IMG/VR virus record: IMGVR_UViG_3300011008_000009
Coordinates: 1-64,000 of that record
Strand: one strand, 5' to 3'
Length of the DNA stretch: 64,000 nt
DNA from: a virus
Shown in pieces: positions 14,903-60,446 of the stretch. Numbering within the stretch: position 1 is the stretch's first letter; each line of letters begins with the position of its first letter. A model generated the notes under the pieces. That model was given only the letters and a program-made list of their open reading frames with translations. It was not told the origin of the DNA and ran no database searches. Both the position numbers and the translations under genes were made by a program.

Positions 14903-15922
14903 ATGGCTAATAATATTTTTGAGAAATATGGCATTAAGGAAGTTGCTGACGTAACATTCTACGATACAGAAACTAACAAGCCTGTACTGTTTCTCGATAC
15001 GCTAAAGGTATCTACCATTGAACAGACAGCTGAACAGACATCTGCTCGTGGTGGTAAAGGTAACCCTGAGCTTATTGTTTGGGACTACGGTAAGGAAATT
15101 ACTCTAAACCTTGAAGATGCACTTTTCTCGCCTCAGTCTATGAACCTAATGCTTGGTGGTATTGAAGGTAAGAAACTTAAGAACGACCTTACTAGCGACG
15201 CTACTGACATAACTACTTTAACTAGAATGACTAAGTATGAAGCTCCGGATTCTAGTAAGTATATTTCAGAAATCAAGGCTGATGAACAGTGGTACGATCC
15301 TTCTACTATGGCAGCACTTACAAGTGTAGAAGCAGTAAATACTGCTCTTGGCACTTACAAGTATGCTTACTGCGAAAAGACTTACACTAAGACAGGTAGC
15401 TCAGTAGGTACAGTAAGTGGTAAGAAAATTGAAATCAGCGCAGCTAACTTCCCTGGTACATATCGTATCGTTGGCGAAACATTCGCTCGTTCGTCTAATA
15501 CAGGTAAGGATGAGTACTTCCAGTTTGAAATTCCTAAGGCTAAGATGGGCGCTGAAAACACTATCACACTTGAAGCTGAAGGTGATCCTTCTGTATTCAA
15601 CATGACGATGAAGGTTCTTCGTCCTGAGTCTGGTCCTATGATTATACTTAGACAGTATGACCTTGAGGATGCTACTCCTACTCCTACAACTAACTATACC
15701 GTAACTTTTGACGTTACTACAAATGCTAGTGACTTAACAGTTACAACTGCTCCTGCCGCTCAGACAGTAGCTGAGGGTGGTAAGGCAACAGCTCCTACCG
15801 GCGTAACAGCTAAGACAGAGGGTTATACAGTAGTTTGGAAGAACGGTTCAGACGATTGGGACTTCACCACTGACACTGTAACTGGTGACGTCACTCTTGT
15901 TGCTACAGCGGTTACAGAATAA
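14903..15922 (+). CDS. Major tail (tube) protein with a C-terminal Listeria-Bacteroides-repeat-like display domain
   Basis: Strong SD and highly-expressed codon style, followed by a terminator. The last ~75 aa (YTVTFDV...APAAQTVAEGGKATAPTGVTAKTEGYTVVWKNG..WDFTTDTVTGDVTLVA) fit the Y.V.F...G...Q.V..G..A..P....GY.F.GW pattern. Confidence 0.6.
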   Translation: MANNIFEKYGIKEVADVTFYDTETNKPVLFLDTLKVSTIEQTAEQTSARGGKGNPELIVWDYGKEITLNLEDALFSPQSMNLMLGGIEGKKLKNDLTSDATDITTLTRMTKYEAPDSSKYISEIKADEQWYDPSTMAALTSVEAVNTALGTYKYAYCEKTYTKTGSSVGTVSGKKIEISAANFPGTYRIVGETFARSSNTGKDEYFQFEIPKAKMGAENTITLEAEGDPSVFNMTMKVLRPESGPMIILRQYDLEDATPTPTTNYTVTFDVTTNASDLTVTTAPAAQTVAEGGKATAPTGVTAKTEGYTVVWKNGSDDWDFTTDTVTGDVTLVATAVTE

Positions 15923-16778: not shown

Positions 16779-16810
16779 CGGGCGCCAATAGGCGTCCGAG
16801 TTTGTTTATA
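16779..16810 (+). terminator. Intrinsic terminator
   Basis: CGGGCGCC (16779-16786) / GGCGTCCG (16791-16798), 8 bp with one G-U pair and an AATA loop, followed by AGTTTGTTTAT. Confidence 0.65.
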
Positions 16811-16820
16811 GGGTGATAAA

Positions 16821-18425
16821 ATGGGAAATATATTTAATAATGAATTGCTGCAATCTTCTTTTAATATTGCTTATAAAGAAAATTGGTTACAATCAAATTA
16901 TTTTGTACATAAATTAAAAAGTCCCTATGATACCAACAATATTGTTCAAAATGATAAAAAAGAATTGTTTGAAAAAATAAATAGTAATATTGATAAATTA
17001 AAAGCTGAAAATAATGCTCAAGAATGGAAGGTTAGAAAAATTAAACAAGAAGCCTTGATGCGAGCAATATTAAATAATAATACTTTATCTGGAATAGATT
17101 TAATTAGACAATTTAATCAGGCTTATTTAAATTATTTGAAAGAAAGTACAGTTTTATTTGATGAAAATGGTTATTACAATATATATGTTCAAGAAGTTTT
17201 AAGAAAAGAATTGGTTCTGTTTTATAAAAGTATTGATGACAATTATAAAAGTTATCAGTTTACTCAACAGGTTTCAGGTTCTTTAATTGAATTTTTTGAA
17301 AAAGAAAAATTAAAAAAAACGTCAATAGACTATTTTACAAATAGAATCGCTACTTTAAAGAAAAATATTAAAAATCTTGAAGAGAAAGAAAAATTATTAA
17401 AATATGAACGAATGGATTATTATGATAATCTTTCTCGATTAGAGGCTTGTCAAAGATTTAGTAATATTTTGTCACATAATGAAAAGTTTATTATAGAAAA
17501 TATTTTTATAGATGCTGGGAGAAAGCATAAAAACAAATTAAGTGGACAAGAAGCGGGTAGAGAATCCGAAAAATTATTCGAAGAGTTTGCTGGTGATTTT
17601 ATTCAGAAACAATTGGGTAATATTACTATTAAACAAACAGGTGCTGGACAAATGAGAATTGAAGCTTCAGAAAGTTTAAGTCAACAGTCTGAAGTTTATA
17701 CAATAAAAACAGATGTAGAATTAGAATTAGATTCTAGTATAATAAATAAAACTTTAAATCAGGTTGAGATAGATATCATTAATAAAATTAAAGAAGATAA
17801 TTCTTTTAAAAAAGATAAAATAAAATTTAATTTTAGCTTAAAAAATTATAAAACTGATACTAATTTTGATATCAGTGCTCAATCTAATAATAATATTACA
17901 AGTTTTTTGAATATCTTAATTAAAAACACAAAAAATAGAAATACCTTATCTTTTTTAAAAGATAAACATAATATAGAAAATTTACAATATTTTATTTTAA
18001 ATGATTTAGTAGACCACAGAAGTCAAAAAACAATAGAAGAATTTAAGAATCAATGTAAAGAGATAGGAATTAATGTATTATTAGCTTTAGATTCCGAAAG
18101 CGATGAAGTAGATTTTTTGGTTTTTAACCAAAGATTAATTCCTTCTTATTATTTATTAGAAAGCATAGAAAAAGAAAGGAAAAGATTAGAAAACTCAGCT
18201 TATAATCTTTTCTCAATACATATGAAAAAAGTACAACCTGTTGCTGTTATAGATAAAAAAAGAAGTGATAAAACTAATTTTTTAAAAGGATATTATTCTA
18301 AAAATTATTTAGAAAGTCATAAAGAGTATGGAGAAAAAATATATAACAGTATTTATATTAATACTAAAATAGATAAAAAATTTATTTTAAATATAATAAA
18401 AGAAATTACAGAAAAAGTAAATTAA
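16821..18425 (+). CDS. Asn/Lys-rich hypothetical protein in a low-G+C island (534 aa)
   Basis: By eye roughly low-20s % G+C against high-30s for both flanks. Sits between a terminator and the tape-measure gene. Possible nuclease-like G..SE ... TDVELEL ... FSLK spacing, which is weak. Confidence 0.7.
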   Translation: MGNIFNNELLQSSFNIAYKENWLQSNYFVHKLKSPYDTNNIVQNDKKELFEKINSNIDKLKAENNAQEWKVRKIKQEALMRAILNNNTLSGIDLIRQFNQAYLNYLKESTVLFDENGYYNIYVQEVLRKELVLFYKSIDDNYKSYQFTQQVSGSLIEFFEKEKLKKTSIDYFTNRIATLKKNIKNLEEKEKLLKYERMDYYDNLSRLEACQRFSNILSHNEKFIIENIFIDAGRKHKNKLSGQEAGRESEKLFEEFAGDFIQKQLGNITIKQTGAGQMRIEASESLSQQSEVYTIKTDVELELDSSIINKTLNQVEIDIINKIKEDNSFKKDKIKFNFSLKNYKTDTNFDISAQSNNNITSFLNILIKNTKNRNTLSFLKDKHNIENLQYFILNDLVDHRSQKTIEEFKNQCKEIGINVLLALDSESDEVDFLVFNQRLIPSYYLLESIEKERKRLENSAYNLFSIHMKKVQPVAVIDKKRSDKTNFLKGYYSKNYLESHKEYGEKIYNSIYINTKIDKKFILNIIKEITEKVN

Positions 18426-18436
18426 GGAGGTAAGTA

Positions 18437-21400
18437 ATGGCTAAAGAACGTGTAATACGCATAAGCACAGAACTTGACACATCAGGTATGCTTTCGGGCA
18501 TTAACCAAATGCGTCAGATGCTTGGTAATATAAATGTTGATTCTAATTTATTTAAAGATGTCAATAAAGATTTAGACAAAATCACTAAAGACATCCTAGA
18601 AGTCAAAAACTCTTTAAAAAATGGTATTCCCGAAAAAGGAGTTACTTCTTTTTTAAATAAAATAGAAAACATTAATAAAGTTTATAGCGCTCTACCCGAT
18701 AAAATAAAGCAGGTACAAATTAATACCCAAAACATTCGTTTTTCTAATCAAACTATTCAGCAATTAGAAACTTTAGACCAACAAATAATTAAATTAGGCG
18801 AAGATGCGAAAAAAGCTATAGGTGAAGATTTAAAAACTTCTTTAAGAAACGCTGTACCTAAAAATATAATTTCCGATGCGACATTAAAAACTTTAACAGA
18901 AGCTACTGATAAAACAAAGGCTTTTTCCGATTATTTTGACCAGATGGCAGATAATGCAGAAGCCGCGAAAGCTAAAGTAGCTAGTTCAATTAAAGATATT
19001 GCTAATACCATTGTAAAGAATACCGATGCAAACGCGACTCAAAAGCGCGCTGCTTTCTCGCAATTTGGTACTGCAGCTATGAATGCTTTACAAGGCGGCG
19101 CGATGGTAAATGTTGACGCCAAAGCTATGGCTCAAAATGCAGCAAATATTGGTGCGACAAAAAAGCAGTATGAGGCTTTAAAAAAGGCTATAATAGATTA
19201 TCAAGATGCTTTACAAAGCTCTAACAACGTATTAGCTCAAAGACAAGCTATACTTGATATTATAAGTAAAGCTGAGTCTGATGCAACCCAAATGGCTACC
19301 CAGGCGGCTAATTTAACCGTTCAAAGAGAGCAAACTGTTACTAATGCTATTAAGAACGAACAACAAGCTCAACAGCAAGCGGGTCAGGCGGCAGAAGCGA
19401 ATGGAAAAAAGACAGCCAATGCGTTAAATCAAGTTAGTGATAGCGCGCAAAAGGCTACTGCACATTTACAGAGACAAGACTCTCTTCTTAAGCAATTGGC
19501 TACTAGAGCCGCTTCTTTAATAGGTATTGGTGCTGTATTCAATTATATCACTCGTGGAATACGTGATGCTTGGAATAGTATTAAGGAGTTAGATAAGGAA
19601 TTTACTGCTATTGCAGTTGTTACTGATAAGACCACTTCTCAACTTTGGCAATCTTTTAATACCTATGCACAAATGGCTCAAGGTCTTGGTGTTGCCACTA
19701 AAGATGCAGTTGCAACTTCTGCTCTTTACTATCAACAGGGTCTAAAAACGGCAGATGTCATGACTCTTACTGCTGAGACCATTAAAATGGCGCAGATTGC
19801 TGGAATGGACTTCAAAACGGCAACTGACCAAATGACAGCAGCTCTTCGTGGTTATAATCTCGAAATGAGTCAGGCTAATATGGTTAATGATATATTCTCG
19901 ACATTAGCCGCTAACGCCGCAGTAGATACTAAGGAACTCTCTTATGCATTAACAAAAACTGCATCTATCGCAGAAAGCGCAGGTATGAGTATTGATACAA
20001 CCTCTGCTTTCTTAGCCAAGATGATTGAAACCACTCGTGAAGCGCCTGAGAATATCGGTACTGCGATGAAATCAATCGTTGCAAGATTTGAGGAATTAAA
20101 GAAAAATCCTTTAGCATTAAGTGTTGATGTAGAGGGCGAAGAGGTCGTAGCAAACAAGGTTGAAGCTGCGATTGCACTTGCCGGAGTTAAACTTCGTGAT
20201 GAAACTACTGGACAGTTTCGTAATTTGGACGATGTATTCCTGGAGCTTGCTAAATCTTGGGATAACCTAGATAGAAATACACAAAGATATATTGCTACTA
20301 TTGCAGCCGGTTCTAGACAACAGTCTCGTTTTATCGCCTTAATGGACGGATATGACAGAACGTTAGAATTAGTTGAGTTAGCTCAAGATAGTGAAGGACA
20401 AAGCGCCGCGCAATTCTTAAAGACATTAGATAGCTTAGATGGTAAGATAAATAAAATTACTAACTCTCTTGAAAGTTTGTATCAGAAATTCGTCAATTCT
20501 GATTTCTTTGGTGGATTACTTGATGGATTGAACGGTTTGCTGCAAGACTTCGGAGATTGGGATGCCGGTACATTAGCAGCCTTTGCTACCGCTGGAGTGG
20601 TGCTGGGTAATAACTTAATAAATGGTATTAGAACAAGTATTAAACAAACGCCTGATTTGTTTAATCAGTTAGTTGACGCTAAGAAATTGCGAGCATTAGG
20701 TGTGCAACGCACAGCAGAGAATAATAAATATAACACAGAATTACAAAAGTACAATGAAGCTACTACTAATTATTCTGCTGCGACAGCGAGAGAACAGCTT
20801 GCTAGAAAAGATTATGAACAATACTTAAGTCAAGGAAAAGGTAAAAAATATAATATACAAACAGTAGACAGTATTATAGAGTTAAAAAAGGTAAAAAAAG
20901 AAATTATAGAATTAGAAAATAGAATTAAAGACCCAGATAAGTATAATATAGATATTACTCAAGCCACTTCTAACTTAAATACTTTACAAGCACAAGCCGA
21001 TGCTCTTGAAAACGAAATTAAAAGTAAAATTCCAAGTCCTGCTATTTTAAATAGTGTTACTGGTAGTTCGCGTTTTCAGGATTATGAACAAGCTAAAGAA
21101 AATACTCAAAATGCTCAAGATGCAATGAAAGCAGCACAAGATGCATTGGTTGAAGCTGAAAAAGCTAAAGATGAAATTAATTCTACCTATGACGAAATGG
21201 AAGGCGAGGTAAATAAAAAAGCAGAAGAGCTTAAAGTTACTGCAGGCCAGGCTTTCCAAAATGCCGGCATGGCTTTGGTTAGTTCTTTAACTATAGGCAT
21301 CTCTATGGCTTTAGAGCAAGATAATCCTTGGGCAGCAATAGCTACTAGCACTTCTACTTTTCTTTTACAAATGTTACCTACCTTAATTCAGCAGGGTACT

Positions 21401-24400
21401 GCCGTAGCAGCCGCGGGAGCTAAGAGTTTTAAGGAGATAGTTACTGCTGCAGGCGGCTGGGTGACTTTGACAATAGAACTTGTTGCATTAGCTATATCAT
21501 TTTTTGGTCCACTTATTGCCAATTTAGTTAAGAACATAAAGAGCGAGTCAGAGAAGTTACAAGATGAACTTGACAAACTTCAAGATGCGCAAAAGCAATT
21601 ACAGGAAAATTCTGAAAGATTAACAGCAGAAGCGGCGGTAGAAAAGACTAAATATAAAAACATTCAAAAACTAACAAAAAATTACGATGAATTAATTAAT
21701 AAAACAGGTCGTACAACTGAAGAAAATGAAAAACTTAATAAAACAATAGAAGAATTAGCTACTGATTTCCCAGATTTAGTTGATTATTATGATGAAGCTG
21801 GTAATGCCGTATTAAAACAACGTAAAGAATGGGAAACTATAATTGATTTACAGAAGCAAAGCGCCCAAGAAGCAGCCCAATCAGCATTAGGAGCTAAAAT
21901 AGCTACTGATTTAAACCAAATACAGATTAGCAAACTCAATACTCAATTAACTGGAGCAAGAGCACAAGAGAAGATATCTCAAAATTATACTTGGCAAAAG
22001 TCTGGTGTAAATAGTGACGACTATCTTAAGGCATTTAGCCAATATGGTCCAGTATTTGGTGGAATGGCTCTACAAGGTACAGCAATGTACAACGGCATAA
22101 GATATCTGTCTGATGCCTGGGTTAATCTTCAGAAAACTTCACAAATACAAGATATATCAAATATAGATTTTAATAATCAGGATGAAGTTAAAAAACTTAG
22201 ACAACGATTAGCAAATATTGAAGCTGAGAATATTGGTTATCTTACTGATAGCGATTCTTACAAAGAATTATTAGCGTTACCTAGTACTCAATTATTAAAA
22301 ACTACCGAAGATTTAAAGAAATGGGCAAACTCTTTAAGTTCTGATAATACCCTTAAAGCTCAGCTACTAGAAGATATCGAAAAGAACCCTCAAACTGTTT
22401 TAACTTATTATCAAAATATTTTTAAGCAGATAGATGATCAAGTAAATGCCTTAAATACCGACTATATTAGTGAAGAAACCAAAAAAGCTATTGAACAAAC
22501 TAAAAAAGATTTACAAAATTATTTTATTAGTTATATTCAAACATTTAAACCAGAAGAAACCGAAGGATATACCGAAAAAGGTTTGCAGTTCTTTGGACAA
22601 GTTTATGGTAGTCAGCAGTCAAAAAATGTTAATCAAACTTTTGGCAGCTATATGGCAAGTAAAAAGGGAAATATTATAGGTCATGACAATACTGCCTCTA
22701 GAATTATTGAAGAGTTATACCTAGAACAAACTGGAAAAGTAGCTCTAGATAAAGAATTAAAAGATGTCATAGACACACTTCCTACTACTTTCGATTGGAC
22801 AAATTTTGATCAACGAAAAGATTTTACTTTACCTCAGATAAATGCAATGGCTCAAATTCTAGGAGAATTGCAATCTATTGATCAGCAGAAAAATGCCGAA
22901 GATTTTGCAGAAATGCTACCTCAAATTAAAGACCTTGCCGATAAAGGGGTATTAGATCAGCAAATACTAGATGTTATAAACTCCGGTGATTGGGGAGCTT
23001 ATGGTACAACCATACTTCAATCATTAGCTCAGGGATTCCGCGAAGCAATGGGAGAAGAAGGTTCGGGTTTTGCTAATACTTTTGATGAAATGGTATCAAA
23101 ACAAATTGATCAATTAAAGCAGATGCAACCCGCTTTTGCCGAAATAGGTAGACAGTATGGTACTGATTTTGCACAAGCATTAATAGATGCAGGAGCTTCG
23201 CCTGAACAAGCGGGTAAATTAGTTAATTCGCTTAAAAATAATCTAGATGTCTCTCAAATGTCTAGTATATTCTCAATGGTTACTGCTGATAGTTTTGATT
23301 GGGGTAGTATTGATCAATTGAAAAAATTAGGCGTGCAGTTCATGGATATGGGAATGAGCGCAGAAGAAGCAACTGATACAGTTTGGGAATTAAGAAACGC
23401 GTTAACCGATCCTATTAACTTAACCATAAATGCTGATAAAGCTATTGAAGATGTAACTAAGGTAGCTAATAGTTTGACAGATTTAAAGAAAGGTTTAAAA
23501 GATTTAAATGCAGCAGTTCAAGAATATAATGAAAACGGTAGATTAAGTGGTGAAACAATATTAGATTTAGTAGCTAATGGACAATTAATGTATCTTAGTT
23601 ATGATGAACAAACTAAAGCTATTACCATTAATAAAAATGCAATGGTTGATTATTACAATGCTCAAGTTGCTCAAGCTAAATTAGAAATACAACTTAAAAA
23701 ACAAGAAGCTGAACGTTCTGTTGCTGCTTTAAAGGTTAGACAAAAAAGTTTAGAACTCCAAAGAAATTTATTAAAGACTGCTTTAGAGAATGAAGGAAAA
23801 TTAACTGAGGAACAATATAAAGCATTAACAACCTTAAACAACACTTATGATGAAGTAACTTTAACAGATACTAGTAACTTTTTAGGTGATTTAATTGATA
23901 GCTACGCAGAGGCTTTAAAAGAAATGCGCGACCTTGCGGCTCAAGGTGGAGTAGCAATTCATGATGCTTTTATGAGTGGCATAACGGGTGGTTCAGAGAA
24001 TGTTACCATTCCTTCCATAGACTCTAACAAAGCTGCATTAAATGACATATTAAATAATGCTAAGAAAAGATATTTACCTTCTAATGTTCCTGATAGTAAA
24101 TACGTATATCAATTAGATCCAAAAGCTGCTGCTGCGCAGCTCGAATTAGTAGAAAAAGAACTTGCTGGTTCGGAGAAGATAATTGCTGAGCAAGAAAAAC
24201 TTGTTGGTTTATATTCCGAAGGCGAAAATATACTCGATAACATTACTGGCAGTGGACTTGATAGCTTCATGAATGATACCGCTAAAGCTGCAAGCGAAGC
24301 TAATAAAGAACTTAAAGAATATGTTTCTACTCTTGAAAAGTATTATAACTTATTAAAAGATACCGAACATGCAGAAGAAGACTATGAACGTGCTAAAAAA

Positions 24401-26995
24401 GAATATGAAAGAAATCCTACTACTGAAAATTACCAAAAAATGCAGCAAACTAGAGTAGATTATGGTAAACAGTTGTTAACACAAAAGGCAACCTTTGAAA
24501 AAGAAAGAGACGAAGATGTACAGCGTGGCGAGCAGAGCTTTATTAAGTTTGGATTAACACCGCAAGATGCTAAACAAATAGCTGAATTAACTTCTCGAAA
24601 AGATGTTAACCAAGATGAGTTACGCAACTGGTTAAAAGATCAAGGATATGATCAAGACACCGCAGAAAAATTTGAAAAATTATGGGAAGATTATAAGAAA
24701 GAAATAGAAACTGACAATAGCAATATTAAAGCAGCTGATGATAAACTTTATGAAATTCAAGTAGACCAAGAAAATGATTTAAAGAAAATAGAAGAAGATT
24801 TAAGAAACTTTGATAGATTAAAGAATATAGAACAGGCTTTAAGTCGTCTTGATAAGTTAATGCAAGATGCTGAAAGAGACTTCCAAGACTATTACGAAAG
24901 CGGCGGAAAAGAAGGAATGGATTTACAACAATACCTTCATACTCAGGGCGCCGGAATACAAGAGTTAAATCTAGCCGCAAGTGAAATTTCTAAGGTTAAA
25001 TCAGATATAGTTGCTGAAAACAAACAGTTATTAGATAACTATGCTATTGAAGTGGATGGAGAATGGTATTTAAATCCAGACACAGTCGGTGACTTAGATC
25101 CCAATGGAGAAACTTATAAAGCATTAGAAGGAGTCTTTAATCAGTTAAATAAAATTAAAGATAAAGAAGACGAAATCACAGATAAACAAAGAGATTATGC
25201 AAAAGCTGCTAAGGAAGCATTAAGAGCGGCAAGAAAGTCATATAGCGATTTAGTTATGAAAGCAGCCGATGCTTTGGCTCAACTTGACCAAAAAGCAATA
25301 GACGAAGTAAAGAAAAAGTATGCAATGATACAAGAAGAAGATGAAAAGTATCTGAACTCTTTACAAAAATCCATTGATAAACAGCGTCAGCTCCGTGACC
25401 AAGCTAATTCTTACGACGATTTAGAAAAACAAGAAAAACGTTTAGCTTTACTTGAAAGAGATACTTCTGGCGCCAATGCGGCAGAGATAGCGGCATTAAA
25501 AGAGCAAATTAAAGATGCTCGCCAAAGTCTTGTAGATACTGAACAAGATAATATTGTGAATAATATTTCTGAAGCCAACGACTTAAGAAAGGAAAAAATG
25601 GACGAAGAAACCACTTTCTTACAGAACGTAATGGATGAAAGAACATATGATATGCAATATTATATCGAACGTGCGCAAGATATAGTAAATGCTGCGATAG
25701 ATGGTGATGAAGGAGCTTATAAGCGCTTATTAGAAATTCTTCAAGAAACTGATGAAGCCTATTACAAAGGTACCAAGCAGATGCAGGAAGAGTGGATGGA
25801 GACTACACAAACCAACATAACTACTGCTACTGGTTATGTAACTGCTTTGAAAGATGGTACTGTAAAAATATTAGGCCAAACAACCGAAGAAATAATAAAA
25901 TCTTTATCCACTTTTGCTGGACAGAACATTGGAAAAGTATCAGAAGTGGAAACGAAGGTCAATGAACTAGCTGAAGTTACTAAAAAAATTGACATGACCA
26001 AATGTTTTGAAGACATGAAAACCGCCGTTGAAGAAGCACGCAAAGAATTGAGTGATTTAATTACAACCTTTGATGGTAGTAAAGTTCACACCCAAGTCGA
26101 AATAGAATATAAAGCTACTGGCGATATACCAGGCGAAAATCTTTATCCGGGTGGTACAGATCCTAATGAAGGAAAAAAATGGGTAACTTTTGAGAGCGCA
26201 ACGGGTAAGATTACTGGTATTTATGATTCGGAAGACCAAATGAAGACCAATAAAGCCATAGACTCAGGTGGTTCCGGAATTAGTGGAACAGCAAGAACAG
26301 CGTCTCAAATATCTCAACTGGGAGATAATTTTAAAGTTGGTGGATACTTGTTTGACGGTTCTTTAAAAGATATGAGTAAGAAAGAACCACCTTCTCAACA
26401 AGCACCTTCTTCAACCTCTGTTCAACAAGAATCAAATCTGTCAGAAGTAAGTTTTAATAAATGGTGGGATTGGTGGAATAGTGAAGGTAAAGCAAGTAGA
26501 ATTGCTATTGGTAAAGATGGTAATGTAGAAGGACAAGTAAAAGTTTTGGGTCCTACTGATGCAGACCCTGAAGGAAATTATCATATATTAAATGCTAATT
26601 CTTTAAAAGACGCTATTATGTATTGGGATAACGATAAACTTAAAAAATTAATAAAGTCTGATGGAACACAAGTCTTTAAAAACGGTGGCTTAGTCAAGTA
26701 CACCGGTCCCGCGTGGGTAGACGGTACTCCCTCCACTCCCGAAGCCTTCTTATCTGCCGACGATACTCGTAACTTCCAGGAACTTGCAAAAATACTTCAA
26801 AATGTTCTTAACTTTGACAAAGCTCCAGTCGCTACAACCGAAAAGGATAAGATACAGATAAAATCTGGAGATACCAATATAGAAATCCACATAGAAGTGG
26901 ACAAGATTGATAGCGAAGAGTCCATGGAAGAACTTTGTGAAATGATGGCAGACAAAATACAGCAATCTTATTCTGGTGGTATTAGTCAGCCATGA
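18437..26995 (+). CDS. Tail tape measure protein (2852 aa)
   Basis: TP901-type TMP core (ATKDAVATSALYYQQGLKTADVMTLTAETIKMAQIAGMDFKTATDQMTAALRGYNL...). Hydrophobic segments and extensive coiled coil. Located upstream of Dit and Tal. Confidence 0.9.
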   Translation: MAKERVIRISTELDTSGMLSGINQMRQMLGNINVDSNLFKDVNKDLDKITKDILEVKNSLKNGIPEKGVTSFLNKIENINKVYSALPDKIKQVQINTQNIRFSNQTIQQLETLDQQIIKLGEDAKKAIGEDLKTSLRNAVPKNIISDATLKTLTEATDKTKAFSDYFDQMADNAEAAKAKVASSIKDIANTIVKNTDANATQKRAAFSQFGTAAMNALQGGAMVNVDAKAMAQNAANIGATKKQYEALKKAIIDYQDALQSSNNVLAQRQAILDIISKAESDATQMATQAANLTVQREQTVTNAIKNEQQAQQQAGQAAEANGKKTANALNQVSDSAQKATAHLQRQDSLLKQLATRAASLIGIGAVFNYITRGIRDAWNSIKELDKEFTAIAVVTDKTTSQLWQSFNTYAQMAQGLGVATKDAVATSALYYQQGLKTADVMTLTAETIKMAQIAGMDFKTATDQMTAALRGYNLEMSQANMVNDIFSTLAANAAVDTKELSYALTKTASIAESAGMSIDTTSAFLAKMIETTREAPENIGTAMKSIVARFEELKKNPLALSVDVEGEEVVANKVEAAIALAGVKLRDETTGQFRNLDDVFLELAKSWDNLDRNTQRYIATIAAGSRQQSRFIALMDGYDRTLELVELAQDSEGQSAAQFLKTLDSLDGKINKITNSLESLYQKFVNSDFFGGLLDGLNGLLQDFGDWDAGTLAAFATAGVVLGNNLINGIRTSIKQTPDLFNQLVDAKKLRALGVQRTAENNKYNTELQKYNEATTNYSAATAREQLARKDYEQYLSQGKGKKYNIQTVDSIIELKKVKKEIIELENRIKDPDKYNIDITQATSNLNTLQAQADALENEIKSKIPSPAILNSVTGSSRFQDYEQAKENTQNAQDAMKAAQDALVEAEKAKDEINSTYDEMEGEVNKKAEELKVTAGQAFQNAGMALVSSLTIGISMALEQDNPWAAIATSTSTFLLQMLPTLIQQGTAVAAAGAKSFKEIVTAAGGWVTLTIELVALAISFFGPLIANLVKNIKSESEKLQDELDKLQDAQKQLQENSERLTAEAAVEKTKYKNIQKLTKNYDELINKTGRTTEENEKLNKTIEELATDFPDLVDYYDEAGNAVLKQRKEWETIIDLQKQSAQEAAQSALGAKIATDLNQIQISKLNTQLTGARAQEKISQNYTWQKSGVNSDDYLKAFSQYGPVFGGMALQGTAMYNGIRYLSDAWVNLQKTSQIQDISNIDFNNQDEVKKLRQRLANIEAENIGYLTDSDSYKELLALPSTQLLKTTEDLKKWANSLSSDNTLKAQLLEDIEKNPQTVLTYYQNIFKQIDDQVNALNTDYISEETKKAIEQTKKDLQNYFISYIQTFKPEETEGYTEKGLQFFGQVYGSQQSKNVNQTFGSYMASKKGNIIGHDNTASRIIEELYLEQTGKVALDKELKDVIDTLPTTFDWTNFDQRKDFTLPQINAMAQILGELQSIDQQKNAEDFAEMLPQIKDLADKGVLDQQILDVINSGDWGAYGTTILQSLAQGFREAMGEEGSGFANTFDEMVSKQIDQLKQMQPAFAEIGRQYGTDFAQALIDAGASPEQAGKLVNSLKNNLDVSQMSSIFSMVTADSFDWGSIDQLKKLGVQFMDMGMSAEEATDTVWELRNALTDPINLTINADKAIEDVTKVANSLTDLKKGLKDLNAAVQEYNENGRLSGETILDLVANGQLMYLSYDEQTKAITINKNAMVDYYNAQVAQAKLEIQLKKQEAERSVAALKVRQKSLELQRNLLKTALENEGKLTEEQYKALTTLNNTYDEVTLTDTSNFLGDLIDSYAEALKEMRDLAAQGGVAIHDAFMSGITGGSENVTIPSIDSNKAALNDILNNAKKRYLPSNVPDSKYVYQLDPKAAAAQLELVEKELAGSEKIIAEQEKLVGLYSEGENILDNITGSGLDSFMNDTAKAASEANKELKEYVSTLEKYYNLLKDTEHAEEDYERAKKEYERNPTTENYQKMQQTRVDYGKQLLTQKATFEKERDEDVQRGEQSFIKFGLTPQDAKQIAELTSRKDVNQDELRNWLKDQGYDQDTAEKFEKLWEDYKKEIETDNSNIKAADDKLYEIQVDQENDLKKIEEDLRNFDRLKNIEQALSRLDKLMQDAERDFQDYYESGGKEGMDLQQYLHTQGAGIQELNLAASEISKVKSDIVAENKQLLDNYAIEVDGEWYLNPDTVGDLDPNGETYKALEGVFNQLNKIKDKEDEITDKQRDYAKAAKEALRAARKSYSDLVMKAADALAQLDQKAIDEVKKKYAMIQEEDEKYLNSLQKSIDKQRQLRDQANSYDDLEKQEKRLALLERDTSGANAAEIAALKEQIKDARQSLVDTEQDNIVNNISEANDLRKEKMDEETTFLQNVMDERTYDMQYYIERAQDIVNAAIDGDEGAYKRLLEILQETDEAYYKGTKQMQEEWMETTQTNITTATGYVTALKDGTVKILGQTTEEIIKSLSTFAGQNIGKVSEVETKVNELAEVTKKIDMTKCFEDMKTAVEEARKELSDLITTFDGSKVHTQVEIEYKATGDIPGENLYPGGTDPNEGKKWVTFESATGKITGIYDSEDQMKTNKAIDSGGSGISGTARTASQISQLGDNFKVGGYLFDGSLKDMSKKEPPSQQAPSSTSVQQESNLSEVSFNKWWDWWNSEGKASRIAIGKDGNVEGQVKVLGPTDADPEGNYHILNANSLKDAIMYWDNDKLKKLIKSDGTQVFKNGGLVKYTGPAWVDGTPSTPEAFLSADDTRNFQELAKILQNVLNFDKAPVATTEKDKIQIKSGDTNIEIHIEVDKIDSEESMEELCEMMADKIQQSYSGGISQP

Positions 26996-36020: not shown

Positions 36021-37034
36021 TTAGCCTTTTATATTGTAACCATATCCTTGTCCTTCATAAAACTCGATCCAGTATTTTTCCTTTGCGGTTAGATCCTTTT
36101 TGTCACATTCCTCAACTACTTGCCAAGTAAAGCTATAAGGACCGTCCTCTTTCATAGCTGGATATAGTTTATTAGATGTCATAGGTTCGGCGCCGACAGC
36201 TCGTTTAAGGTGTTGCCGCCAACGCTCTGCTATATCTACTGCTTGACCTATATACACTTTTTCATTCAAAGTGTTTGTCAGCTTGTAGATACCAGTAATT
36301 TGTTTGGTTCCTATTACTCGACCTACCAAATCTGTATACGGCTTTTCGTAATAGGTTTTATAAATTAATTTGTCTAATATCTCTGGGTGATGAAGCAGAT
36401 GCTTTATACTTTGTAAAGCCTGTATATCGGATATGTCGTTTTCTGTTATATTTAACTGATAAAATTTAGCCTTTTCTCGTATCTCTTCTTGCTCTTTGTT
36501 TATCTTTATTATACTTTCTTGTTTATCACGATATTCTTTCAGTATATGTTCAAAATTAGCTTTTTCTTTTTCATACTCTTCGGTCATTTGCCGTTTCAGT
36601 CTTTCACACTGTTGTTTATAACTTTCTACTTCTTTATTGGCATTATCATACATTTGGTTCTTAAATTCTTGCGTTTCGGCGCCGATACTATCTTTCTTAT
36701 CTTTTAGTTGAGATTGATAAATCTCTTCTAAAGACTTTAGAGCTTCTTCTTTCTCTTTTACGCCATTAGATAATATCTCATAAGAACCAGTTAAATTATT
36801 AATTTTGTTTTCTAATGAAAAACTTTTGGATTGCTGCTCTCTTAGGTCTGCATAAACTTTATCTCTATTTGCAGATAAATTTTCATATTGTTCGTTTAAT
36901 TCTTTTATCTCGTTTTCTTTAGATTCGATACTTTCTTTTAATTCTTGAAGACGACGTTTGGCTTCTCTACTTAAATACCAGTAGAGAAGCGCAAGTAGAC
37001 AACTAAGAATTATAACAATTGCAATAATTATCAT
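36021..37034 (-). CDS. Membrane-anchored coiled-coil protein with C-terminal GIY-YIG nuclease domain
   Basis: N-terminal hydrophobic helix (IIIAIVIILSCLLALLYWYL). About 200 aa of heptad-rich E/K sequence. C-terminus: GIYKLTN..KVYIGQAVDIAERWRQH...KEKYWIEFY..GYGYN. Start moved to ATG 37034 behind GAGGTG. Confidence 0.75.
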   Translation of the reverse strand: MIIIAIVIILSCLLALLYWYLSREAKRRLQELKESIESKENEIKELNEQYENLSANRDKVYADLREQQSKSFSLENKINNLTGSYEILSNGVKEKEEALKSLEEIYQSQLKDKKDSIGAETQEFKNQMYDNANKEVESYKQQCERLKRQMTEEYEKEKANFEHILKEYRDKQESIIKINKEQEEIREKAKFYQLNITENDISDIQALQSIKHLLHHPEILDKLIYKTYYEKPYTDLVGRVIGTKQITGIYKLTNTLNEKVYIGQAVDIAERWRQHLKRAVGAEPMTSNKLYPAMKEDGPYSFTWQVVEECDKKDLTAKEKYWIEFYEGQGYGYNIKG

Positions 37035-37047
37035 AACGCCGAACACC

Positions 37048-40428: not shown

Positions 40429-41652
40429 CAAGGTAGATGTTATTTTCATAACTGACTACTACCTTAGACTATATCTTCATCGTTTTTAGAGTCAAATAGC
40501 GGCTCTACCAACCGATATTTTCGACTAAGACAGATTTTACAATCTTTATACAAAATGTTAGCTAAACATTTTGCAGTTTTTTGTTTTGTAGTTTGACAAA
40601 CATATCCATTATTTTTCTTATCTTTTACATTTATTTTATTAGTAAACGAGGCTTCTATAGGAAGAAAAGAATTGCAAAAAGTTTTAAAATCCTCACAAGT
40701 GGATTGATAATTTGAAACAAAACCTATGTGATAATAATTATTTTTATCTATAGAAATCCAGCCGTCTCCATCTATCAAACCTCTTATAAAATGAGGTCGC
40801 ACAGCTAACGATAACTCTGGTAAATGTTTTGTTTTATGTGTTTTATCTGGCACTATACCATATTTAGCCAAACTATTACATAAATGTTCGCTTATCATTC
40901 GGATAGAACAAACTTCTGTATTACCTCTATTTCGATAAGAAATTTTACTATTAAGATTTAATTCCTTTTTAAATCTCTCTAATAATTCTCTGTCTTTAGC
41001 TTGTATTTCTATAGTTAATTGATGGTTATAAACGTTTCCATCTGCAAAAACAAATCCTAAAAAATAAGCCTTTTCTTCTGTATCAATATTATCAAAAAAT
41101 TCATCATTCTGTTCTTTATTGAGCTTAGGTTTATTAATTATTTTTATATTATTTTTAACTAAAACCTTATGGATTGTTTCGGTACAACAATTATATTTTC
41201 GAGCTATTTCGTTTTGAAACAAATCTGTAGTTGTATATAATTTAATTATTTCTTCTTCATCTTTTTTATTTAATATTCTAGGACTTTTTTTACTACGAAT
41301 TTCAATATTATTATCTTTTAATATTTTACTTATAGAATTTGCTCTGCAATGTAAAATTTGTGTAGCTATATATGAAATTGAAAATTCATCTTCGGTATAT
41401 AATTTTATGATATTTTTAATATCATTTTCTGTCCATTCTCTTCTTTTCGGCATTTTATCACCTCCTTTTAATTTAATGGTAGATAAACGATGCGTGGCAC
41501 TTGGGATTTCTCCTACTCTATACTAGATAGTCGTTGAACCTTCCGTTAGCTAAACGGCTTGGCTGCTGATAAGCATATCATATAGACTTAGCTTTCCAGC
41601 AATTCACCACGTTATTCAAATAATCTTACGATTATAGGGAGCAATTTTATTT
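40429..41652 (-). mobile_element. Intron (group I-like) carrying a LAGLIDADG endonuclease gene
   Basis: Interrupts the GYGFNxSH codons. The exon ends in U (GGGT|) and the intron ends in G (CCTTG|). Has the CGACTATC..AGTAGG core and a GTCAG+23 nt 3' tail like the other three introns. P1 pairing is weak, so the class and exact ends are less certain. Confidence 0.6.
40464..41453 (-). CDS. LAGLIDADG homing endonuclease
   Basis: Two motifs, YFLGFVFADGNV and FIRGLIDGDGWI. N-terminal HTH-like repeats. Strong SD (AAAGGAGGTG). Confidence 0.85.
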   Translation of the reverse strand: MPKRREWTENDIKNIIKLYTEDEFSISYIATQILHCRANSISKILKDNNIEIRSKKSPRILNKKDEEEIIKLYTTTDLFQNEIARKYNCCTETIHKVLVKNNIKIINKPKLNKEQNDEFFDNIDTEEKAYFLGFVFADGNVYNHQLTIEIQAKDRELLERFKKELNLNSKISYRNRGNTEVCSIRMISEHLCNSLAKYGIVPDKTHKTKHLPELSLAVRPHFIRGLIDGDGWISIDKNNYYHIGFVSNYQSTCEDFKTFCNSFLPIEASFTNKINVKDKKNNGYVCQTTKQKTAKCLANILYKDCKICLSRKYRLVEPLFDSKNDEDIV

Positions 41653-42319: not shown

Positions 42320-43547
42320 CGGTTTGTCATATATTTCTATATGTCCTGACTATCTTTTACCTTATAGGAACTCCGTTTCGAACTACGTATCAATAGTAGC
42401 CCTACTCCCAGTCTCACCCGGGATAGTCGATACACACATATTTTAGAGTAAATTTTTCCAAGTTGTGCCATTTATGACAGCCCTTATAGAAGTGGGTGTC
42501 ACTTGAGGGTAGGCTTTATAAATTTCAGAATTAGAAATGCCTTCTTTGTGCATTTCTCTTATTTTTAATACATCTTGAGTAGTTAATTTCGCTCGACCGT
42601 TATATTGTCCAGCTCTACGAAGACTAGAATGAATTTTTCTGTTTTCTTCTGTAAAAACTTCTGGCATTACTAGTTTATATCTATTACCATAATAAACATT
42701 CCAAAATGTCATTTCGTCTTTGTATGCCCATTTATAATCTTCGTAAACATCCTTCCAATACTCACCTTTTGCATATCTTTCTCTTAATTTTACCACGTCA
42801 TCATATTCGAGAGGACCGTTAGTGAATTGACCAGCAAACTCTCTATTAAAAGGATATTCTTCAGTGGTAGTTGTGAGATTTTTGTAAGTTATATGATGAT
42901 ATATTTTTCTAAAAGTTTCATATTTAATTTTTTCAGAAAATTGTTCATATAACAAGCAAATAGGAATATTTCGATGGTCTAAGATGTATTGTGCTTCTTC
43001 TTCTGTTAGATTAGCATTATTATTATCAGCTCCAGCTTTACCTTTATAAGTAGGAAAATATTTTCCACCAGGGTCAACATTATATCCATTAGGGACTAAG
43101 CTGTTAAACTCTTTAATATATTGTTCTTCTAGCACAATTGCTTCTTCAATTGAAAGGTTTCTATGTAGCACCTTAAATTCAAAGTTATCCTTTCCATATT
43201 TATGGATAGCTTCTTGAATTACTTGTCGATGTTTAAGGTCTTTAGGATAACTTTTTTCGTTTCCCCATTTTTTTTCTACATTGTTAGTAATACCAATGTA
43301 TATTTTTTGATTAATTAAATTTGTTATTTTATATACATACATATTAACACCTCGCACTTTATTACCCTCATAATAAAGTGGGATTTATGTAACGTCTACT
43401 CTAAAATTTTGGCGCGGGATTACCATATCACTGGGATTATGACTTAGGCTTCCCCGCCGCTATATAGGTACTGTTTACTTACGCTTTCGCTGCCTATATA
43501 ACGCTGCCGATAAGCAGTTAGAAGTTTACGAGCCTAACATTTCGTCA
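42320..43547 (-). mobile_element. Group I intron carrying a GIY-YIG endonuclease gene
   Basis: Exon ends AGT|. Guide-like GCTCGT can pair with GTGAGT. P2-like CTGCTTATCGGCAG. 3' core TATCGACTATCCCGGG...ATTGATACG..GAAACGG is homologous to the two topoisomerase introns. The intron ends in G. Confidence 0.75.
42443..43342 (-). CDS. GIY-YIG homing endonuclease
   Basis: MYVYKITNLINQKIYIGITNN...E..YI..F....PNGYN. C-terminal repeated (T/S)xE(D/E)(V/A)..IR helices. Start moved to ATG 43342 behind GAGGTG. Confidence 0.85.
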   Translation of the reverse strand: MYVYKITNLINQKIYIGITNNVEKKWGNEKSYPKDLKHRQVIQEAIHKYGKDNFEFKVLHRNLSIEEAIVLEEQYIKEFNSLVPNGYNVDPGGKYFPTYKGKAGADNNNANLTEEEAQYILDHRNIPICLLYEQFSEKIKYETFRKIYHHITYKNLTTTTEEYPFNREFAGQFTNGPLEYDDVVKLRERYAKGEYWKDVYEDYKWAYKDEMTFWNVYYGNRYKLVMPEVFTEENRKIHSSLRRAGQYNGRAKLTTQDVLKIREMHKEGISNSEIYKAYPQVTPTSIRAVINGTTWKNLL

Positions 43548-58253: not shown

Positions 58254-59212
58254 CGTATTACTCAATTATTACTAATTGTACTGACCATTTCTTCACATAT
58301 AGTGCATACCGTTTCCAATTGCGTATCAATAGCAATCGTACTCTCCAACAACGGAGATGGTCGATACAGGTTAATTATTCTTTTCTAAGTTCTTAATCCT
58401 TTTAAGATTAGTAGCTTTAAAGCTGTCGTAACTGGAATATATATTTTTAAAGTCTTCGTAAATGGTTCTTAAACTTTCACCATTTGCATATCTTAATCTA
58501 ATGCTTTCAAACTGTTGGTCACTAATTTTTGCTTTTGGGTTCTTTTCTCCTGGGTTGCTATAACTTTTAGAATTATTTCTATGCCACTCTCTATTTTCTT
58601 GTGTATTTAATTCGGGTAAAATATTTTTCCAAGTTTGCCAAGTATATACTTTTTTAAAACCGGTTTTTTCTATTTTATCCTGATATTCATAATACATTTC
58701 TCTTGTAGAGATAGTCTTGGATGCCCACAATAATCTTATTTCTATAACATCTTTTTCTGTTAATTTGTGCTTAGGATGTTTTTCGCCGTGAGTATCAACT
58801 AAATCTCCACCCGGAGTAGCATTATATCCTTTTTTAAAAGTATTGTAATAATTTATCCAATAAATTTCTTTTTCTTTTAGCTCTTCTGGTTTACATTCTT
58901 CTAAAACTTCCCATTTGAAATTTTCTAAACCATATTTTCTGAACGCTTGATACAATACTTTATCATACTCTTTATTATCACTATCAAAAGCTCTTTCTCT
59001 ATGAGATTTCCAGCGATTTTCAATATTTATAGATAACCCAATATAAGCATTATTATTAATTAAATTTGTAATTTTGTATATACCAGTCATACATTTCCTC
59101 CAAGAATAATTCTTCCCACGAGATTATCCAACTTGGGACTACCCTCGTTAGCAGTCAATGAAGACTACCCCGCCGATAAGCGGAAAAGTATGTAAGGACC
59201 AGACTACCTCTT
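58254..59212 (-). mobile_element. Group I intron carrying a GIY-YIG endonuclease gene
   Basis: Exon ends GGAT|. Guide GTCCTT pairs with AAGGAT, with a G-U pair at the splice site. P2-like CCGCTTATCGGCGG. Conserved 3' core TATCGACCATCTCC...ATTGATACG..GGAAACGG. The intron ends ...AATACG|. Confidence 0.8.
58371..59090 (-). CDS. GIY-YIG homing endonuclease
   Basis: MTGIYKITNLINNNAYIGLSINIENRWKSH...KEIYWINYY..GYNATPGG. Repeated T/S.xD/Q....IR helices. Confidence 0.85.
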   Translation of the reverse strand: MTGIYKITNLINNNAYIGLSINIENRWKSHRERAFDSDNKEYDKVLYQAFRKYGLENFKWEVLEECKPEELKEKEIYWINYYNTFKKGYNATPGGDLVDTHGEKHPKHKLTEKDVIEIRLLWASKTISTREMYYEYQDKIEKTGFKKVYTWQTWKNILPELNTQENREWHRNNSKSYSNPGEKNPKAKISDQQFESIRLRYANGESLRTIYEDFKNIYSSYDSFKATNLKRIKNLEKNN

Positions 59213-59411: not shown

Positions 59412-60446
59412 CACGTTACCCATTATTTCTAATGGCGCTGACTATCTGTTACTCGTTAAAATGAGAATACTCTTTCCAATCACGTACCAATAGTGACTGT
59501 ACTTCCCTTCCGGGGAATAGTCGATACAGGCTTCATTTATTAACCCAAACCTTTTGTTTTTTCTTGTATATTGGCAGGTCTTTATAGGTGCGACCCCACA
59601 ATATTTGTTGTAATGTATTGTAACTGCATCTATCTTTAAAATCATTATAGATACTTCTTGCATCTTCATTAACGTACCGTTCTCGCATTTTTAAGACTTC
59701 TTCACTTGTAAATTTTGCGCTATCTGAATTAGAGCCATCTGTTGCGTGATATTTATAGAAATTTTTATTTTCCTCGGTATAAACTTCCATTTTAATATCT
59801 TTCCAAGTGGTTCCGTCCCAAATGGATGCGAAGCTGCTAAAACTTATTCTGTCTTGAAATTGTTTATATACTTCACGGCGTCGCATATGGTTGCCATAAC
59901 ACTCTCTAATATAAGCCACATCTTCATTAGTGAGTTTCGTTCTTCCATTATTTTCACCACGACTATTTCCGCCGCCTTCATTGCAATTATAACCAAATCC
60001 TTTATAAGTATTATAATATGCAATCCAGTATTTTTCTCGTTCATCTAATTGTTCTAATGAACATTCTTCTATAATTTCAAAATCAAAAGCATCAACGCCA
60101 TATTTCTTAATGGCTATTTCAATCGGTATATCAATTTTGTTTTTATGTTCGGAAAATCTTCTCTCTATATCATTACTTTGACCAATATATGATTTTCCAT
60201 TTTCTTTCTTAGTTATTTTGTATATGCCTATCATTGCGGCACCTCCACAATTATTAGGCTTGGGTCAATTCTGATTCCCACGGGATCTGCATGCCCACGA
60301 GGGGTTTAGCTTCTCTTATCACCATAACCTTTCGGTTTAGTTGCCCGTTAGCCTTCTATAATAATGTAGGGAATATGTAAACCCTCTCTACATTTTTCAG
60401 AAGACCCCGCTGGTTAGCGGTAAAGTATTTACGGACAGAGTTACTT
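59412..60446 (-). mobile_element. Group I intron carrying a GIY-YIG endonuclease gene
   Basis: Exon ends TCGGAT|. Guide GTCCG pairs with CGGAT, with a G-U pair at the splice site. P2-like CCGCTAACCAGCGG. Conserved 3' core TGTATCGACTATTCCCCGG...ATTGGTACG..GGAAAG. The intron ends ...AACGTG|. Confidence 0.8.
59533..60234 (-). CDS. GIY-YIG homing endonuclease
   Basis: MIGIYKITKKENGKSYIGQSNDIERRFSEH...REKYWIAYY..GFGYNCNEGG. Confidence 0.85.
   Translation of the reverse strand: MIGIYKITKKENGKSYIGQSNDIERRFSEHKNKIDIPIEIAIKKYGVDAFDFEIIEECSLEQLDEREKYWIAYYNTYKGFGYNCNEGGGNSRGENNGRTKLTNEDVAYIRECYGNHMRRREVYKQFQDRISFSSFASIWDGTTWKDIKMEVYTEENKNFYKYHATDGSNSDSAKFTSEEVLKMRERYVNEDARSIYNDFKDRCSYNTLQQILWGRTYKDLPIYKKKQKVWVNK

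Follow-up and report, generated by a model that had tools for sequence, protein, structure and literature searches.

The DNA considered here comprises positions 1 to 64,000 of the IMG/VR virus record IMGVR_UViG_3300011008_000009 (the window), part of a complete 138,578-bp genome with direct terminal repeats. The + strand of the window encodes a late operon of head and tail genes. The subject of this work is ORF534, an open reading frame (ORF) for a 534-amino-acid (aa) protein that lies in this operon between the tail tube genes and the gene for the tape measure protein (TMP). The YomW, YomV and YomU tail module indicates that this rumen phage belongs to the SPbeta/949/Tyrovirus supergroup of giant siphoviruses. 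The locus is laid out as follows, with a Dit-like gene downstream of the TMP gene.

14903-15922, + strand: tail tube protein 1, YomU type, 339 aa (phrog_2729, E = 3.1e-48; PF27173 YomU_Tube on the identical gene of contig L004)
15989-16774, + strand: tail tube paralogue 2 (tube2), 261 aa, left flank of the cassette described below (phrog_2729, E = 1.9e-10; PF27173)
16779-16808, + strand: intrinsic-terminator-like hairpin after tube2, CGGGCGCC-AATA-GGCGTCCG, with a T-rich tail
16811-16816, + strand: weak Shine-Dalgarno-like GGGTGA, 4 nt upstream of the ORF534 ATG (by eye from the sequence)
16821-18425, + strand: ORF534 (protein P0001), 534 aa, ATG start, first member of a new family of pre-tape-measure proteins
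18426-18436, + strand: ORF534/TMP junction, 11 nt, with a perfect GGAGG ribosome-binding site for the TMP gene
18437-26995, + strand: TMP, 2852 aa (PhageMin_Tail, E = 4.8e-24)

A preliminary description of the window had reported a terminator in front of an AT-rich ORF that ends 11 nt before the TMP start and takes the place of the tail assembly chaperone pair. All of these observations were confirmed. The stem-loop at 16779-16798 has 8 pairs, 7 of them G-C, and is followed by the T-rich tail; this terminator belongs to the tube gene. The ORF534 stop codon ends at 18425, GGAGG follows directly, and the TMP ATG stands at 18437. There is no small ORF pair between the tube genes and the TMP gene; ORF534 replaces the pair of the relatives and is the sole gene in the classical chaperone position. 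A search of the window genome with weak profiles detected nothing homologous to the small ORFs of the relatives. The second tube paralogue is present in this phage and its close relatives where most cultured relatives keep the small ORF pair, and in Clostridium phage phiCD211 a second tube-like gene and the pair occur together. No promoter above chance was detected for ORF534. The suggestion of a moron retains its compositional argument, but the gene lacks a promoter of its own, the terminator is that of the tube gene, and the gene occurs in all relatives found.

The G+C content of ORF534 is 0.219 (GC1/2/3 = 0.318/0.217/0.121) compared to 0.342 for tube2, 0.355 for the TMP gene and 0.36 for the genome. 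This is the lowest value among the 47 ORFs of the window (z = -3.7) and among the 132 ORFs of the whole genome. The shift toward AT affects all three codon positions, and the FYMINK residues (Phe, Tyr, Met, Ile, Asn and Lys) make up 45% of the protein. ORF534 has no GGCGCC or GGCGCG. The preliminary description was correct in noting this absence, but it is uninformative because only ~1.8 copies are expected from the window density (~0.01 from the composition of the ORF itself). GGCGCC is a feature of the window in its own right. There are 36 copies in the 64 kb (for example at 3710, 4134, 16444, 16781 and 24947) compared to 2.6 ± 1.6 expected, with a maximum of 8, in dinucleotide-preserving shuffles. 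The stem of the terminator that follows tube2 is built from one of these copies, and the word is absent from ORF534 and from the window's four AT-rich homing endonuclease genes. Candidate causes of the excess are a selected site, a modification/restriction recognition site, or the use of the word as a hairpin building block.

The genome contains eight homing endonuclease genes, free-standing or intron-borne (one LAGLIDADG, five GIY-YIG and two HNH), located as follows.

36021-37046, window: homing-endonuclease-type gene
40464-41453, window: homing-endonuclease-type gene
42443-43357, window: homing-endonuclease-type gene
58371-59090, window: homing-endonuclease-type gene
59533-60234, window: homing-endonuclease-type gene
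64653-65267, genome record G000: homing-endonuclease-type gene
66122-66661, genome record G000: homing-endonuclease-type gene
118996-119631, genome record G000: homing-endonuclease-type gene

These genes rank 3, 4, 5, 9, 10, 16, 20 and 36 of 132 by low G+C; their mean of 0.298 is significantly lower than the 0.365 of the other genes (Mann-Whitney p = 1.6e-5), and ORF534 falls 3.3 sd below even this class. Its AT-richness may link the gene to horizontally moving genes, a link by association only. A composition shared with selfish genes is in line with the discordant cassette history described below. Two further elements lie outside the window. A 297-aa reverse transcriptase ORF at G000 97056-97949 on the + strand, likewise AT-rich (RVT_1, E = 1e-17; G+C 0.289), may be part of a retron, of a group II intron or of a diversity-generating element. 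Within a 757-aa open frame, G000 67699-67905 on the - strand matches LAGLIDADG_3 (E = 3.3e-6), pointing to an intein or to an endonuclease domain fused to a larger protein.

Exhaustive protein searches with ORF534 recovered a tiny family. P0002 and P0003 are 65-67% identical to it, P0004 is 35-39% identical, and P0005 and P0006 are distant full-length relatives. A second homologue search with the family profile added nothing new. Megablast and tblastn searches of annotated phages with P0001, P0005 and P0006 gave no match, and a family-profile search of viral, genome and metagenome collections confirmed no locus, with the same result for the P0005 and P0006 queries. Synteny was read on contigs L001-L005, of which L004 and L005 have the same allele as the window. 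The order of a YomU-type tube gene, a hairpin, the ORF, a ribosome-binding site and a giant TMP gene is common to all five contigs. The tube/ORF hairpin is kept at the aligned junctions of L001 and L002, in L001 with other stem bases and another loop, and an equivalent is visible upstream of the ORF in L003. The AAGGAGG-ATG junction before the TMP gene is kept in L001, L002 and L003. The G+C content of the ORF is 0.22-0.24 in L001-L003 compared to 0.30-0.34 for the flanks (0.265 for the short TMP fragment on L003). The dN/dS ratio is 0.17-0.24 for ORF534, 0.20-0.22 for tube2 and 0.28-0.40 for the start of the TMP gene.

These comparisons indicate that ORF534 is a real gene under purifying selection and that its low G+C is an old, maintained property of the gene lineage. 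The preliminary description had proposed a horizontally acquired moron. The deviant composition, a cassette history discordant with the flanks and the location in a cargo hot-spot all agree with horizontal movement. The acquisition was not recent, because the same position and low G+C recur in alleles of 65-67% and 39% identity and the dN/dS resembles that of the tube gene. Universal conservation at this position with matching composition had been named as an outcome that would speak against a moron; the position is conserved in all relatives found, whereas the composition never matches the flanks. The presence or absence polymorphism among relatives that had been named as a check was not seen. 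L001-L005 all carry the gene, no empty site was found among the relatives, and the variation takes the form of allele replacement.

Evidence for exchange comes from the disagreement between the divergence of the ORF and the identity of its flanks. Compared with the window, L003 has a single mismatch in the final 27 nt of tube2 (26/27, 96%). In the TMP gene the nucleotide identity rises from about 77% to 93-100% from ~18507 onward, with 91% identity over 82 aa. The intervening ORF is 39% identical in protein and contains ~1.1 kb without detectable nucleotide similarity. In the comparison of L001 with L002 the ORF is 84% identical, tube2 is 71% identical, and the TMP start is 57-66% identical. 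These patterns indicate that ORF534 moves between related phages as a cassette. Its bounds are the conserved terminator hairpin of the tube gene on the left and roughly the first 70 nt of the TMP gene on the right (breakpoint near 18500).

The same slot holds other genes elsewhere in the clade, a tyrosine recombinase being the occupant in most cultured relatives. In Lactococcus phage 949, Thrax5 and Sundance it contains two small ORFs followed by a tyrosine recombinase (PF00589). Phage 949 has two further small ORFs between the pair and the recombinase, which lies just before the TMP gene, and Sundance has one more small ORF between the recombinase and the TMP gene. In Geobacillus E3 the pair is preceded by an additional small ORF and followed by the recombinase and then by many small genes. 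In phiCD211 a second tube-like gene and the small pair are followed by an island with regulators, an anti-repressor and an SHOCT gene. This island (L020 10100-13988) sits within the structural operon and encodes a transcriptional regulator, a repressor, the anti-repressor and the SHOCT-domain protein, with some genes on the opposite strand. A human faecal contig (L022) has unrelated ORFs of 403 and 191 aa in the slot. The position of the recombinase in the tail module has been termed "especially curious" and its role unknown (PMC9703825). No PF00589 match, and hence no tyrosine recombinase, was found anywhere in the window genome. The small ORFs after the tube gene are probably the chaperone pair. 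The second is in frame +1 relative to the first and overlaps or abuts it in 949 (L006 9794-10577), Thrax5 (L007 9925-10930) and Sundance (L008 9888-10887), an arrangement compatible with a conserved +1/-2 programmed frameshift; the Tyrovirus annotation names the second small ORF "neck protein". Taken across the clade, gene content identifies the tube-to-TMP slot as a plastic cargo site of the lineage.

Several candidates for the origin of ORF534 were compared directly and rejected. A degenerate recombinase is contradicted by the hhalign comparison with 949 ORF131 (E = 0.51) and by the lack of PF00589 in the genome. A fused small ORF pair is contradicted by E values of about 0.5 against the small-ORF profiles. 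Kinship was also rejected for Geobacillus E3 GP35 and for the two L022 ORFs (403 and 191 aa). The A8 run at 17313-17320 (T-TA-AAA-AAA-ACG) contains a classical A_AAA_AAA slippery heptamer. Programmed frameshifting at this site was rejected because the run is absent from P0002-P0006, and it is probably a mere consequence of AT-rich composition.

A probable sister family was identified in Enterococcus phages. The phrog_29801 family consists of a 452-aa hypothetical protein (e.g. XAG97223.1) of Enterococcus phages VRE9_1-4, EF1, EF5 and H1, encoded directly before the TMP gene and after two small ORFs. Metagenomic relatives of this protein, down to 28% identity (P0009-P0013), have exactly the same gene order, and the genes of the family have the native G+C content of their neighbours. 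Profile comparison of the ORF534 family (alignment A1) with the phrog_29801 family (alignment A3) by hhalign gave E = 6e-4 and a score of 38.2. It was reached by none of the 150 column shuffles (mean 15.4, sd 2.4) and none of the 150 block shuffles, whose highest value was 36.3, and the two reversed controls scored ~18. The alignment is collinear over ~370 columns under relaxed settings, and MAFFT independently aligns two motif blocks of the two families. In HMMER searches A1 matched P0011 with E = 0.0024 and the reverse search gave nothing; hmmscan against PHROG gave no phrog_29801 match for ORF534.

The motifs K-T-D-[VLI], [FLI]-S-x-K-[NM] and [ND]-D-[ER]-[VI]-D-[FYL]..N..[IV][IVS][PS] occur in this order in 11/11 proteins of the two families. 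A G-x3-E upstream of the triplet was located in 9/11 by automated scan and in the other two by alignment. The ordered triplet occurs in only 13 ORFs out of 625, representing 11 distinct proteins from both families, and in 0/12,500 shuffled ORFs. These results make homology of the two families probable, not proven. Both occupy the position directly upstream of the TMP gene in a YomW/YomV/YomU-type tail module, and both combine a long-helix N-terminal half with a C-terminal domain carrying the same ordered motifs. The phrog_29801 proteins differ in their native G+C, in the presence of two small upstream ORFs, in being 80-140 aa shorter, and in a spacing of 13-14 residues between motifs II and III compared to 33-41 in the ORF534 branch. 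Because the sister family coexists with the small ORF pair, the core function of the family is not simply that of the pair.

The regions of the ORF534 protein map to the gene as follows.

16821-17180, + strand: conserved N-terminal region, aa 1-120, with an NYF[VI]H..SPYD motif (invariant A1 columns, per-domain identity)
17181-17495, + strand: variable long-helix region, aa 121-225 (AlphaFold2 (AF2) predicted local distance difference test (pLDDT) scores of 60-89; 14-18% identity in distant members)
17556-17570, + strand: motif I, G246-x3-E250, in a predicted helix (alignment)
17706-17717, + strand: motif II, K-T-D-V, aa 296-299, T297 and D298 invariant (alignment)
17832-17846, + strand: motif III, F-S-L-K-N, aa 338-342, S339, K341 and N342 invariant (alignment)
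18099-18143, + strand: motif IV, S-D-E-V-D-F-L-V-F-N-Q-R-L-I-P, aa 427-441, the block linking to the Enterococcus phage family (hhalign, MAFFT)

Conservation is best in aa 1-120 and 346-534 and lowest in aa 121-225. Overall the protein is mildly basic, and its C-terminal domain is slightly acidic. It has no transmembrane segment (maximum Kyte-Doolittle value over 19 residues = 0.9), which points to a soluble product. A role in superinfection exclusion had been suggested; a membrane exclusion protein was rejected because the sequence lacks a hydrophobic segment. The suggested role in defence likewise found no support, PADLOC giving no match to a defence family.

The preliminary description had also noted a weak spacing reminiscent of PD-(D/E)xK nucleases in the C-terminal half. 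The residues concerned proved to be conserved, with the E of GRESE, the TD of TDVELEL and the S-x-K of FSLK invariant in 11/11; the match to a nuclease profile or fold did not follow. Searches of PDB sequences with both family profiles found nothing, and the RecU, NgoMIV and Mrr_cat profiles found nothing in the genome at E ≤ 10. The Bse634I search is void, its own controls being unmatched. Profile scans detected no known homing-endonuclease domain in ORF534 and readily detected the true members in the genome. AF2 places G-x3-E in a helix and, after an intervening strand, K-T-D and S-x-K-N in one strand each; helices and a strand with D-x-x-D-F follow. This order, predicted at pLDDT 25-40, is compatible with a restriction-endonuclease-like core. 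The 33-41-residue insert between motifs II and III in the ORF534 branch counts against such a core. A nuclease-like mechanism for ORF534 is a lead and not a result, and at present a doubtful one.

The best overall explanation, to which we assign a probability of about 45%, is that ORF534 is a functional accessory (cargo) gene of the late operon that is both resident and swapped in its slot, represents a previously undescribed two-domain family and possibly encodes a nucleic-acid enzyme. One part of it, namely that ORF534 is an accessory gene of a new family that resides in its slot and yet can be swapped, is, taken by itself, quite probable. The gene would be transcribed by read-through of the tube-gene terminator and its product made in small amounts just before the TMP. 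The helical N-terminal half may mediate oligomerisation or partner binding, and the C-terminal domain with its G-x3-E, K-T-D, S-x-K-N and N-D-x-x-D-F elements could be a divergent metal-dependent nucleic-acid enzyme. An enzymatic role would parallel that of the recombinase filling the same slot elsewhere. The most specific form of this idea is that ORF534 and phrog_29801 are new metal-dependent DNA enzymes that travel with the TMP gene, with a divergent restriction-endonuclease-like fold, an S-x-K variant of its third motif, and a place as the alternative to the tail-module tyrosine recombinase; we regard it as rather unlikely.

Several results weigh against the overall explanation. There is no recognisable small ORF pair anywhere in the phage and a TMP of 2852 aa needs a chaperone. 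The gene is present in every homologue-carrying contig found and is constrained like a structural gene. The part of the cassette evidence that comes from L003 rests on a contig of only 1,967 bp. Scans of ORF534 and diverse members of both families with Pfam, PHROGs, PADLOC and NCBIfam gave no consistent match. The order of the PD-(D/E)xK residues (E, D, xK) is kept, but a Ser occupies the Asp/Glu position of the third motif. AF2 modeling of P0001 with 4 sequences reached a pLDDT of 43 and of P0008 with a merged 9-sequence alignment 47.8; both models are confident in the N-terminal helices only, with an unusable C-terminal domain at pLDDT 25-40. The best Foldseek hit against PDB (E = 0.087, TM-score below 0.2) is long-helix noise and meaningless because the models are confident in helices alone.

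The main rival, serious although we consider it unlikely, is that ORF534 is an unorthodox, frameshift-free tail assembly chaperone replacing the missing small ORF pair. The N-terminal half, which AF2 confidently predicts as helical, would coat the TMP, and the C-terminal domain would recruit tube subunits. In the complete genome, where homologues of the small ORFs were not found, something else must chaperone the TMP, and no gene other than ORF534 lies between the tube and TMP genes. Its tight coupling to the TMP start, its placement after the tube-gene terminator like low-copy tail factors, a dN/dS equal to that of the tube gene and its constant presence also speak for this reading. Against this, the sister family of Enterococcus-type phages occurs alongside the small ORF pair, and in most phages of the clade that have this tail module the slot is filled by a recombinase or by unrelated genes. 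A 39% identical allele beside a TMP start of 91-100% identity is unexpected for intimate co-evolution. ORF534 resembles neither the small ORFs (hhalign E about 0.5) nor any chaperone family in Pfam or PHROG, no frameshift signal is conserved, and the compositional deviance is left unexplained. The known chaperones of this position, gpG/gpGT of lambda and SPP1 gp17.5, resemble ORF534 in lying between the major tail and TMP genes, in having a helical region and in low expression, which for ORF534 is presumed. The gpG/gpGT type is a small product of about 100-170 aa extended by programmed frameshift into a second overlapping ORF. ORF534 differs in being a single 534-aa product without a conserved frameshift site or profile similarity and in its large conserved domain, predicted to be alpha/beta, with enzyme-like invariant residues.

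A free-standing, selfish gene of the homing-endonuclease kind, belonging to a new catalytic class and spreading by cutting tube/TMP junctions that lack the allele, is an improbable identity for ORF534. Its composition matches and exceeds that of the eight homing endonuclease genes in a genome rich in such elements, it has a cassette-like history in an intergenic spot between two conserved genes, and its E/D/S-x-K/D-x-x-D motifs are conserved. No known homing-endonuclease domain and no gene-lacking relative were found, and allele replacement is seen in place of presence and absence. Purifying selection over deep divergence and a stable sister family of native composition in Enterococcus phages also count against this identity, and a length of 534 aa with a large helical half is atypical for the class. 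The free-standing homing endonuclease genes (seg and mob) and the hyperplastic-region cassettes (internal-protein loci) of T4-type phages are AT-rich, wedged between conserved genes, and discordant in history with their flanks. ORF534 shares these three properties, and the AT-rich class of its genome is mostly GIY-YIG, HNH and LAGLIDADG. It differs from these T4-type genes in having no recognisable endonuclease domain, no presence or absence polymorphism seen, and a fixed position over deep divergence.

It is speculative and very improbable that ORF534 encodes a tail-lumen or ejected protein, co-assembled with the TMP, delivered ahead of the DNA and diversified by host defences. Translational adjacency to the TMP gene and divergent alleles in near-identical backgrounds fit such a role, and the injected anti-restriction proteins of T-even phages likewise have divergent alleles in near-identical backgrounds. 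The slot gene ORF132 of phage 949 is annotated as a structural protein. The virion bands of Tsamsa do not include slot genes, however, and no anti-defence similarity was found. Least probable is that ORF534 is a moron which came recently from a foreign AT-rich donor and serves in defence or superinfection exclusion: this would account for an orphan protein and a sharp G+C contrast coinciding with the gene borders, but it is largely refuted by the conserved synteny, with the same slot and low G+C in alleles diverged to 39-67% identity, no promoter of its own, no transmembrane segment, no PADLOC match, and no homologues found outside the tail-module context in annotated phages or in viral, genome and metagenome collections.

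Another known system close to ORF534 is the tail-module tyrosine recombinase (Tyrovirus gp50, the Lactococcus 949 group with ORF131, and the Sundance and Geobacillus E3 proteins). Like ORF534, it is found in the tube-to-TMP slot of this tail-module lineage, and it is co-oriented with the structural genes. It differs in being a genuine PF00589 enzyme, to which ORF534 has no similarity. The tyrosine recombinase in the structural operon, in the slot before the TMP gene, is a published puzzle, to which ORF534 adds a conserved second occupant that is unrelated to the recombinase. The slot emerges as a site of exchange that runs from the tube-gene terminator to the TMP start. ORF534 is at present a well-documented orphan family and not a mechanism, and it is tied to proteins of cultured, genetically tractable Enterococcus phages. 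If ORF534 is a chaperone, it would represent a new, frameshift-free type for very long TMPs. If it is an enzyme, a DNA transaction would be coupled to tail gene expression, and if the two families are DNA enzymes, the giant siphoviruses of this lineage would need a DNA-processing activity expressed with, or delivered by, the tail.

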